Assembly (NCBI GenBank): GCA_965649765.1
Contig: OZ287754.1
Coordinates: 27,404,001-27,468,000, forward strand
From: Bispira polyomma
Taxonomy: Eukaryota
Direction of reading: 5' to 3'
DNA length: 64,000 bases
In this document: piece after piece, positions 41,130 to 43,806 of the stretch
How the letters are laid out: the number at the start of each line of letters is the position of its first letter
Numbering within the stretch: position 1 is the first letter of the stretch
Notes under the pieces: model-generated
The model's database searches: none
What the model was told of the DNA's origin: nothing
The model's input: only the letters and a program-made list of their open reading frames with translations
Translations under genes and position numbers: made by a program

Positions 41130-41929
41130 ATGTCTCAGTGTCCTATCTGCTCAAAAACATTTTCAAGACCTGACAATGTAAAAAGACATATAAAAATGTT
41201 CATTCCAAAGGAACACCACCACCAGGGTTGCAAACAGTGGTACCACTACAGAAGGTTAGACCAACAGATATATATCCAACTCCTAGAGTAGATCAAGATG
41301 GCTACAGCGTGGTAGCGCTACCTAATACATCCATTTACATGTCTGGTGACCGACCCAACTGGAAGTGGTAAAACCACATTTTTGAAAAAGTTATTGCAAG
41401 GTAAAGATGAAAAGATATATCAGCCTCCATCAAAGGTTATTTGATGTTATACACAATGGCAACCTCTCTATGCAACAATGAAAAATGTAGAATTTCATCA
41501 AGGACTGCCAGATGTCGAGGAATTATAATCTTGCTTGCTTATTTTAGGTGACATGATGGATCACTTGGAAAGTGGAGTGACTGAGTTGTTTACCAAAGGC
41601 ATTCATCACCGCAACATTTCTATCATTGCGGTGCTCAAAATGTGTTTCACCAAAGTAAATACCAGAGAACAATCAGCTTGAATATGCATTATATGGTACT
41701 GTTCAAGAATCCCCGAGATGCCAGTCAGATTTAACATTTAGCCAGACAGATGTACCCCAAAGATCCAGAGTATATGGACCAGGTGTATGACAGAGTGATG
41801 TCCTTGGGACCCTGTAGCTATTTGTTCAGCAATCTCAAACAGGAAGCACCTGAGAATATGAGACTGAGAGCCAATTTGTTGGAAGATGAAGAAAGATATT
41901 ATTATGAAAGAAAAAAACGTTATCAATAA
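41130..41929 (+). pseudogene. C2H2 zinc finger plus A32/FtsK-HerA-type DNA-packaging ATPase (Polinton/adintovirus-like), with stops and frameshifts
   Basis: Manual translation: MSQCPICSKTFSRPDNVKRHIK(NVH); HPFTCLVTDPTGSGKTTF (Walker A); CLLILGDMM (decayed Walker B); LFTKGIHHRNISII; QNVF...RTISLNMHYMVLFKNPRDASQI*HLARQMYP; RLRANL. Confidence 0.88.
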
Positions 41930-43806
41930 TGTTGTGAACAATGTTGATATTATTGTCAAAGATAATAAACTTCAAATGTGAATTGAATGTTAAGATAATG
42001 TTTAAATAAACAGTTTAAATGAACATTTCATATTTTTATTCTCTATGCTGGGACACTGCCTATTTTTGTCTTATTTTTTGTCAATAGACTGCAGAATTAT
42101 GATAGTCAGGGTTTGAAAATTTTAATTTATTAATTAAACACTTACCTAAATTTTTATCAATCTACATTTCTCTTGAACTGTTTGAACTCCAATTTTTGGA
42201 GTTAGTGGAGGGCACACTTTTTATCAAAGTACATGCCAATTTCATACAGGGAAATCATGTTCTCAGTAACATTTTACCTTGTGTAAACGCCATTTACTGA
42301 TATTTATTAAAATCTGCGTAACTTCCAAGGAACCTTCCATCTTTCTTCTCCCATTAGCAACCAGGGATATACTAAGCTTCAAACAGTCCCAAATCCAGTT
42401 TTCCAAACTCTTCCCAAATCTTTCCAAATATTTGCCTCGGGTGCAAATTCCGCATCATGCTATATACAGGGACTGAAAAAATTCTCTTTTTAAATGAACT
42501 GTCCTGGAAATGATATAGAACTAAGATGTGTGGTATTACAATACAAGTAAATATATAAATAATCTTAAAGATAATATTTTTCAAAATACAAAGTAGTATC
42601 AATATCCAATTTTAAATGCAACAAAATTTAATTTTGATAACTGCATATGTATTACTCAAGATTGTTTTTACTTTTTCCCACTCTATTTGCAAAGTGAGGT
42701 TTTTAATTCTAGTATATGAATGATTTGGAATATTTAATTTTAATTTTCATAATGTTACATTTACAATGTATGTTAAGTTTGCTTTCGAAAGGGCTACTTT
42801 TCTGTAATGTTAAAATATTTATTGAATAATATATATCAGTGGCCTGCTATAGGTGCAAATGTTGCATTATGCTACAAAAAGAAACTATACATTTTTTGTT
42901 GACTTTTTTTGATTTTGTTATTTAATTGGTTTTGTTTTAATCTTCAAAAATTAACTGTCCTGGAAATAATATAGTTCTGCAAAATATCAGATGCCAGAAC
43001 AAAGATGTATGGTATTGGAATACTGAGATATTTATATGCGAAAAAATAAAAGATAATATTTTAGAAACTCTATCAATTTCCCAGTTTTCAAAGGTATTTA
43101 AATTTAAGTTTGATAGCTACAGATGTATCATTCATGAGCATATATGCTCTTTCCCATTTGATTTGTAATTTGCAGAGTGAAAAAGACTCATTTGTATACG
43201 TTATACAGACCAATTCATAAAATAATTTGTGCTTTGATTTACTTCTGATTACTGTATTTCAGTATTATTACAGGACTATCAGTGTAATAATGGGGTATTT
43301 GTATAATTGATTGTAATAGGTGTTATTTTGTTTTTTTAACCTAGCTGTTTTCATAATGTTGTAATAATACACTGTTGTCATGTTGTAAAAACACATTTGA
43401 CAAGTTTTTAACAATATTCTCTACACGCTAGCAAACTTTAATTACCATTGTTGCATACTTTGCAAGTGAAACCCCGTTTTTACAGCCATCTTTTACCATA
43501 TTCTTTATTCACACATGCCTGTTTCATATTGTAAATATTGTAAATATTACTTGTATATATTCTTGTTATATGTTTTTATGTTATTGATTTCCAGCAGTTT
43601 TACAGTTGATTTATGTCAAAGTTTTTGTTTGTGTTTATTTAATCTGATGGTCATGATTGCTATTGTTTTAATAATTTTCAAATGTAACAGTAATAATCCA
43701 CATCTTACAAGCATTAAAAAATATTACATTGCTTTTCTGATAAATGTTTTGATTGTTGTTTGGTATTGGTATTTTGAGAAAGCTGTCAGCTGGGTCTCAC
43801 TCCAAT

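Follow-up and report, generated by a model that had tools for sequence, protein, structure and literature searches.

The DNA that begins with the ATG at 41130 raises the question of what kind of element left a C2H2 zinc finger and an A32-type packaging ATPase side by side in the window, that is, the whole stretch of 64,000 nucleotides analysed here. The first-pass annotation had seen in this cassette the relic of a small or atypical virus-like element, or a viral gene captured by another transposon. We consider it very probable that the locus is instead a decayed DNA-level fragment of an endogenous element of the Polinton/Maverick (adintovirus-type) class, comprising only the ATPase gene and short flanks; the rest of the element would have been lost or would lie beyond the window. 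The names Polinton, Maverick and adintovirus are treated as synonymous in passages of 10.64898/2026.06.19.733378. On this reading the locus is a commonplace relic of a class that is already known. Eroded Polinton fragments are very numerous, and this one matters little in itself; the pattern seen across its ATPase family could matter.

A decayed gene for a finger-bearing packaging ATPase

A packaging ATPase gene with an N-terminal C2H2 finger occupies positions 41130-41929 of the plus strand and is broken by three frameshifts (near 41195, 41325 and 41637) and three nonsense codons (41442, 41526 and 41732) (Table 1). The ATG at 41130 indeed opens the finger MSQCPICSKTFSRPDNVKRHIK, as read in the first-pass annotation; the reading frames agree, and Pfam calls zf-C2H2 at 27 bits, above its cut-off of 25.2 (E 5.4e-6). 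C-x2-C-x12-H-x3-5-H is the pattern of a classical C2H2 finger, which has a beta-beta-alpha fold; Pfam recognizes such a finger above the cut-off in the window read as well as in the intact relative P0006, the second His of the window being out of frame. That this His and the Pro-rich linker are reached by a change of frame had also been recognized correctly. Both lie in a frame other than that of the ATG, which is stop-free from 41198 to 41330 and is the sole one of the three frames that resembles the linkers of intact relatives, scoring 68-81 against P0008, P0009 and P0010 versus 14-24 for the other frames (against P0006, 35 versus 20-30).

The start frame had further been thought to continue through the ATPase to 41929. 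HPFTCLVTDPTGSGKT does begin at 41328, and the C-terminal part of the ATPase does terminate at the stop codon 41927-41929. The start frame itself, however, runs into stops at 41289 and 41313, where the linker is off frame, and again inside the ATPase at 41442 and 41526, and the C-terminal third, which contains the additional stop at 41732, lies in another frame owing to the third frameshift, near 41634-41640. Finger and Walker A share one frame because the first two frameshifts cancel out. In addition to these frameshifts and nonsense codons, Walker A and Walker B are both damaged, each by a substitution at a near-invariant position, so that the degree of decay had been understated; an intact pair of Walker motifs in an open frame is not present in the window copy. 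At columns conserved in at least 90% of 173 cores, the window copy deviates in 6 of 43, compared with one each for P0006 and P0009. Pox_A32 is matched with 20 bits (E 5.3e-4), under the Pfam cut-off of 22.8. The best protein match, in a search among 5.8 billion proteins, reaches E 6.8e-54 and is far beyond chance, and the C-terminal part is 75-79% identical to P0005, P0006, P0007 and P0009. The A32-like packaging ATPase gene is therefore present at the locus as a pseudogene, without functional product.

Table 1. Features of the decayed gene and its flanks (window positions)
Feature	Position	Strand	Remark
G/A-rich low-complexity tract, GGGA/GGAG units and a longer recurring unit	40765..41066	+	directly 5' of gene
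TATA-like box (41067-41077) and initiator-like TCATTC (41099-41104), ~30 bp apart	41067..41104	+	pattern match only
C2H2 finger; helix R(-1)-P-D-N-V-K-R(+6)	41130..41203	+	Pfam, alignment to P0006/P0009
Frameshift of the finger in an A-run near 41192-41197, ahead of second His	within 41130..41203	+
Pro-rich linker, stop-free in a frame of its own; next frameshift at about 41322-41327	41204..41327	+
ATPase N-terminal part, A32/FtsK-like; nonsense codons 41442 and 41526	41328..41633	+	Pox_A32 below cut-off
Walker A (41352-41375) and Walker B (about 41535-41552)	within 41328..41633	+
ATPase C-terminal part; QNxFH, RTISLN and KNPRD motifs; nonsense codon 41732	41634..41929	+
AATAAA (41964 and 42005), TTTATT (42035); then no poly(A) run	41964..42040	.

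The purine content of 40761-41070 is 87%, with 36 GAG triplets, and no other 300-nt tract of the window is of this kind; Tandem Repeats Finder reports a repeat of period 4 at 40808-41064 (68% matches). The sequences at 41067-41077 and 41099-41104 resemble, as patterns, the TATA and initiator consensus. The AATAAA placed at about 42006 and the opposite-strand signal at about 42035 in the first-pass annotation are present, at 42005 and as TTTATT at 42035, respectively. They constitute weak evidence because the DNA is AT-rich: by arithmetic, each poly(A)-type hexamer is expected ~0.2 times per 130 bp of ~70% A+T DNA.

Intact relatives encode finger and ATPase in a single reading frame

Relatives were sought with the start-frame translation, read through with X, which gave 19 matches among 27 candidates. 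In P0005, P0006, P0009 and P0010, finger, linker and ATPase follow one another without interruption in proteins of 252-273 amino acids (P0006 and P0009 have 84 and 56 member sequences, respectively), whose cores share 74-77% identity with that of the window copy. As finger and ATPase form a single ORF in the intact relatives, the fusion is real, which settles in favour of the earlier proposal whether intact copies fuse the two domains. Some relatives that have only one member sequence seem degenerate, which is usual for mobile DNA present in many copies. When 174 cores were reduced at 72% identity to 92 rows and a tree was built, the window copy clustered with P0006 and P0009 (SH-aLRT 100%).

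P0006 exceeds the Pfam cut-offs both for Pox_A32 (28.2 versus 22.8 bits) and for zf-C2H2. Its predicted structure, based on a 35-row alignment, has a mean pLDDT of 87.6, with a confident finger and ATPase domain: residues 1-25 are at about 96, including a helix at 14-25, while the linker is predicted to be disordered (below 50 at residues 28-38 and 40-45). The gene of the intact relatives encodes a single protein in which a flexible linker connects the C2H2 finger to an ATPase of the A32/FtsK type. The predicted viral structure that the model matches most closely comes from Drosophila-associated adintovirus 3, an FtsK-like protein (E 1.1e-9), and the top solved structure is the packaging NTPase B204 of STIV2 (E 3e-7; PDB 4KFR and 4R2H for STIV/STIV2 B204, TM about 0.48/0.58), an archaeal virus protein with chains of ~205 residues that is about 13% identical to P0006. 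Atlas neighbours are Pox_A32 clusters, the commonest taxa of which are Mollusca or Preplasmiviricota (1 to 5 members each). One neighbouring cluster is named A32/zf-C2H2, which means that automatic annotation already shows the two domains together. Pfam, Atlas neighbours and fold matches hence agree with the first-pass annotation in placing the ATPase in the A32-like FtsK/HerA family of Polintons and adintoviruses, to which it belongs by sequence, Pox_A32 match and fold alike.

A sequence search of the PDB returned matches to the zinc finger throughout the best 60 of 114. The phage collection gave no match, and the prokaryotic genome scan gave five weak, generic P-loop matches among the 600 stretches listed. 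In the fingered ATPases P0057 and P0072 a Met is kept exactly at the start point of short relatives such as P0063, and long and short isoforms could conceivably be made from such genes.

Companion genes and the origin of the locus

Scans for other Polinton genes covered six frames of 40201-43800, 32701-34842 and 45651-46603, together with 38 of the 43 ORFs of at least 100 amino acids (the five omitted being three in the GA tract and two antisense overlaps). Neither these stretches nor these ORFs contain a Pfam match to pPolB, and tblastn with two pPolB-bearing proteins gave nothing better than E 0.18 outside the ATPase. An rve-family integrase is likewise absent from the Pfam scans, and tblastn with P0286 matched the ATPase only. 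For the major and minor jelly-roll capsid proteins and the cysteine protease, the general Pfam scan of these stretches and ORFs gave no match, though it could miss decayed genes. When 278 homologues were compared with the window by tblastn, 553 segments fell within 41100-41960; three weak segments outside it (E 0.002-0.003) were dismissed as noise. Eight long proteins, pPolB and integrase parts included, revealed no other Polinton gene in the window. Two further candidates were rejected: a segment at 46955-47080 (tblastn E 0.002-0.3), which did not recur with filtering, and a Pfam match to TibC_1st at 43470-43817, which was below the cut-off and in Tyr/Cys/Leu-rich sequence of AT bias. The absence of neighbouring Polinton genes, noted in the first-pass annotation, therefore held in every test made, within the limited sensitivity of these tests.

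Maverick termini are described, in passages of PMC8097293, as inverted repeats with (AGT)2//(ACT)2 or (AG)3//(CT)3 ends. No terminal inverted repeat brackets the gene and no paired end motifs were found; longer runs (at least three AGT/ACT or at least four AG/CT units) occur only far from the gene and are unpaired. The window copy is a pseudogene for which no companion genes were found, and since pPolB, integrase and termini gave negative results, the locus does not qualify as an element, which counts against the preferred origin.

A lone fragment is nevertheless what would be expected, since 96% of vertebrate Maverick loci are degraded (passages of PMC8097293). In bivalve assemblies, 58.5% of 107,631 viral regions were assigned to Orthopolintovirales, according to passages of 10.1101/2025.04.19.649669. 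An alternative that we regard as improbable is that P0006, P0009 and their clade derive from an element that is reduced or otherwise departs from the standard (with a helicase, with a tyrosine recombinase, or as a non-autonomous satellite that keeps the ATPase) and of which the window holds a relic. The lack of a second Polinton gene at the locus would suit such an element, and so would the long stem of this clade in the tree (0.35), the frequent replacement of pPolB by helicases in Group 2 Maverick-Polintons (passages of 10.64898/2026.06.19.733378) and the joining of ATPase and Phage_integrase-like domain in P0287 (E 3.5e-4, below the cut-off). Yet no helicase, recombinase or terminal repeat adjoins the gene, and standard elements, too, usually survive as isolated, eroded pieces, as passages of PMC8097293 indicate.

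Less probable still, and indeed very unlikely, is that another mobile element, a Helitron-like or other DNA transposon, captured the gene and carried it along, or that the gene was retrocopied. The multi-copy AT-rich repeat to the left extends to about 40455, and the matches to 39836-40147 and 46590-48136, which lie ~6.4 kb apart here, are separated by ~0.9 kb in the copy at 18816-22620, so that the cassette and a LINE may sit in an old repeat unit. The repeat is not resumed to the right of the gene, however, and among seven flank comparisons (z -0.5 to 3.6) only one, beyond the LINE, exceeded all shuffles. Retrocopying in particular was judged unlikely, given that the TATA-like box is retained and no poly(A) run follows the AATAAA.

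Gene models of more distant relatives also bear on the preferred origin from a Polinton. Ten long matches were obtained among 5220 candidates. In P0283 (Actinostola), a short finger and the ATPase are joined to a pPolB-like C-terminal part, which shows Atlas features of 0.95-0.97 and a TM of 0.92 to a cluster 14% of whose members have DNA_pol_B_2, although Pfam alone leaves this part uncalled. P0290 joins DNA_pol_B_2 to a piece of the ATPase, and in P0286 (Mya arenaria) an rve integrase is attached to the ATPase with its tail; this tail is common to 22 other homologues, and an N-terminal finger is found by pattern in 10 of the 23. The remaining long matches, apart from P0287, comprise one with a retrotransposon pol, one with a kinesin and four without a further informative domain. 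P0283 and P0286 are 34-47% identical to the window copy, and the finger of P0283 is of the shorter type. Joined models of this kind are automatic predictions of distant relatives and therefore show the neighbourhood only loosely; the pPolB- and rve-joined ones point to what are probably ordinary Polintons. The earlier notion of a small or atypical element is accordingly not supported, as distant models carry pPolB or rve integrase and many ATPases of this family have the fusion.

The Phage_integrase-like domain of P0287 (Actinostola) is tyrosine-recombinase-like, and the model reflects an element that uses a recombinase, unless gene prediction has merged the ATPase with an adjacent transposon. 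Many ATPases of the family carry a C-terminal tail of 200-300 amino acids, composed of a CCHC-like finger and a helical domain without Pfam name. It is common to 23 stored homologues, bearers including P0136, P0145, P0148, P0167, P0170, P0217 and P0286; the window copy does not have it.

Distribution of the finger in the ATPase family

An exhaustive search yielded 5407 matches at E<=1e-10 among 8000 scored candidates, and 4328 cluster representatives at the same threshold, the best 150 of which were taken as the sample for a finger census. A first pattern count found a finger ahead of Walker A in 39 of these 150. On refinement, 45 carry a full C2H2 finger, 5 a short CCHH finger and 2 a FLYWCH-like one, 5 start inside a finger, 27 have other extensions and 66 have no N-terminal extension. 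Two earlier searches had shown a finger in 22 of 129 proteins. Because the query carried a finger, all these shares are biased upwards and are not family-wide frequencies. Many members are extension-free proteins of about 205 amino acids, to which the P0006/P0009 clade adds finger and linker, and the 66 without extension imply that the family can do without the finger. When the finger label was placed on the tree, 20 changes were needed, at least six of them forced by well-supported branches; truncated gene calls inflate this number, and the claim is therefore limited to the fingered forms being scattered.

As judged from these sequences, the finger is not special to the 41130 locus and appears to be common in this ATPase family. 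No description of a finger-ATPase fusion was found in the literature, where subscription papers, Repbase and supplements may hold one. A link between finger and ATPase is absent from the passages available of PMC8502044, PMC3671162, PMC11161782, PMC4028283, PMC9356565, 10.64898/2026.06.19.733378, PMC10748475, 10.1101/2024.03.25.586562 and PMC8097293. The architecture is apparently undescribed yet widespread, and annotators should be warned that 'C2H2 proteins' of invertebrates can be viral ATPases.

In P0150 and P0218, an N-terminal FLYWCH-type finger takes the place of the C2H2 finger (by Pfam for P0150, by eye for P0218), which suggests an independent gain of a DNA-binding module.

The recognition helix and a possible role in packaging

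Arg-1, Asp+2 and Arg+6 occupy base-contacting positions of a C2H2 finger, and by the zinc-finger code a helix with these residues reads 5'-G-N-G-3', or GAG when position 3 is Asn. A lone C2H2 finger binds DNA weakly, and packaging ATPases of the FtsK-HerA type act as ring motors. In the 45 ATPase-adjoining fingers, Arg-1 is present in 38, Arg+6 in 41 and Asp+2 in 22, and position 3 is Asn in 16. Of 32 downstream fingers, drawn from the same proteins together with P0286 and P0289, none has Arg-1 and 9 have Arg+6. The combination Arg-1/Asp+2/Arg+6 is kept across ATPases that are less than 50% identical, unlike in the downstream fingers, although a fingered query also inflates the likeness of helices among the matches. 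This conservation suggests that the helix may read G-N-G DNA, possibly that of a packaging signal.

We tentatively propose, given a Polinton origin, that the finger reads a packaging signal, a possibility we take seriously while stopping short of favouring it outright. By analogy with other FtsK-HerA packaging ATPases, the ATPase of intact relatives may assemble as a ring motor and would therefore display several fingers together, an arrangement that would be well matched to a repeated signal. These could read G-N-G triplets in the repeated DNA of the element, and their binding would select the element's own DNA while the motor pumps it into a jelly-roll capsid. Filling of such a capsid with DNA is the role assigned to Polinton ATPases in passages of PMC4028283. 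Maverick ends include (AG)3 and (AGT)2 motifs, as passages of PMC8097293 state; GAG is contained in the former only. It is tempting to link the GAG-rich tract upstream of the window gene to the predicted target of its finger.

The proposed function has a parallel in adenovirus IVa2, a packaging ATPase that is among the fold matches of the P0006 model. Together with its partners, IVa2 binds a repeated packaging domain situated close to the end of the genome (passages of PMC5033970). It differs in being a distinct ABC-type ATPase (passages of PMC11161782) and in that AT-rich repeats are recognized together with L4 22K and others, not via a C2H2 finger. Zinc-finger proteins of related viruses are known from the Ziftr genes of adintoviruses and adomaviruses and from MV04 of Mavirus; these are described as separate genes and mentioned as stand-alone finger genes in passages of PMC3671162, PMC9356565 and 10.1101/2024.03.25.586562 that draw no link to the ATPase.

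Transcriptional or non-specific roles rank close behind. Still assuming a Polinton origin, the finger might control transcription of the element, contact a protein or grip DNA non-specifically, which is conceivable in view of the weak hold of single C2H2 fingers on DNA. The same place is filled by a short CCHH finger in 5 and a FLYWCH-like one in 2 of the 150 representatives, and some adintoviruses have Ziftr as a stand-alone gene (passages of 10.1101/2024.03.25.586562), all of which would suit such roles. They leave unaccounted for the retention of base-contacting Arg-1/Asp+2/Arg+6 below 50% ATPase identity, an observation to which the ranking bias applies.

Returning to the reading of a packaging signal, its broadest form would be that many invertebrate Polintons have a motor with a built-in, sequence-specific reader of G-N-G repeats in their own DNA, the finger (C2H2, short CCHH or FLYWCH) having been repeatedly gained, lost and swapped. 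We consider this generalization speculative and rather unlikely. If true, it would identify a packaging signal and a genome-selection step for a class of viruses whose virions have not been observed (passages of PMC10748475). A base-reading helix on a packaging ATPase would predict a specific motif in intact elements.

Other repeats in the window

The window, with a GC content of 29-45% per kb, consists largely of repeats and looks like intergenic DNA of an invertebrate; reverse-transcriptase fragments are found in 7 of the 38 scanned ORFs, and an endonuclease ORF lies at 43753. A retrotransposon relic at 14689-18200 (+) contains RVT_1, RVT_3 (RNase H-like) and an ORF at 17181-18200. This ORF has no Pfam match at 1e-3, and we take its motif to be tyrosine-recombinase-like and the relic to be DIRS-like. 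It is flanked by a direct duplication of 1.1 kb (12745-13871 and 18816-19940, 96.5% identical). The LINE relic at 43753-46235 (+), presumably L1/Tx1-like, carries the endonuclease ORF (Pfam Exo_endo_phos), a 25-nt A run at 46211 and an inverted duplication of 177 nt (44911-45087 and 45335-45511, 100% complementary), which could be real or an assembly artefact. Further non-LTR fragments bearing RVT_1 lie at 4531-7690 (-), 25234-27269 (-), 49444-50997 (+), 53565-54590 (-) and 59817-60600 (+).

An ORF at 31771-32382 (-), without Pfam match at 1e-3, adjoins three short direct repeats at 32364-32712; from its motif we assume a resemblance to the N-terminal part of PIF/Harbinger transposases. The AT-rich dispersed repeat of 2-3 kb is present in at least four copies (10801-13058, 28459-30660, 37297-40455 and 51492-52953) that are 72-88% identical and contain no recognized coding domain; the third of these stops about 300 bp before the GA tract. 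Finally, an element of 250 bp occurs in four copies of ~90% identity (21988-22240, 38923-39179, 50276-50535 and, inverted, 51020-51260), two of which make up an inverted pair (96%) that encloses 498 nt of LINE sequence.
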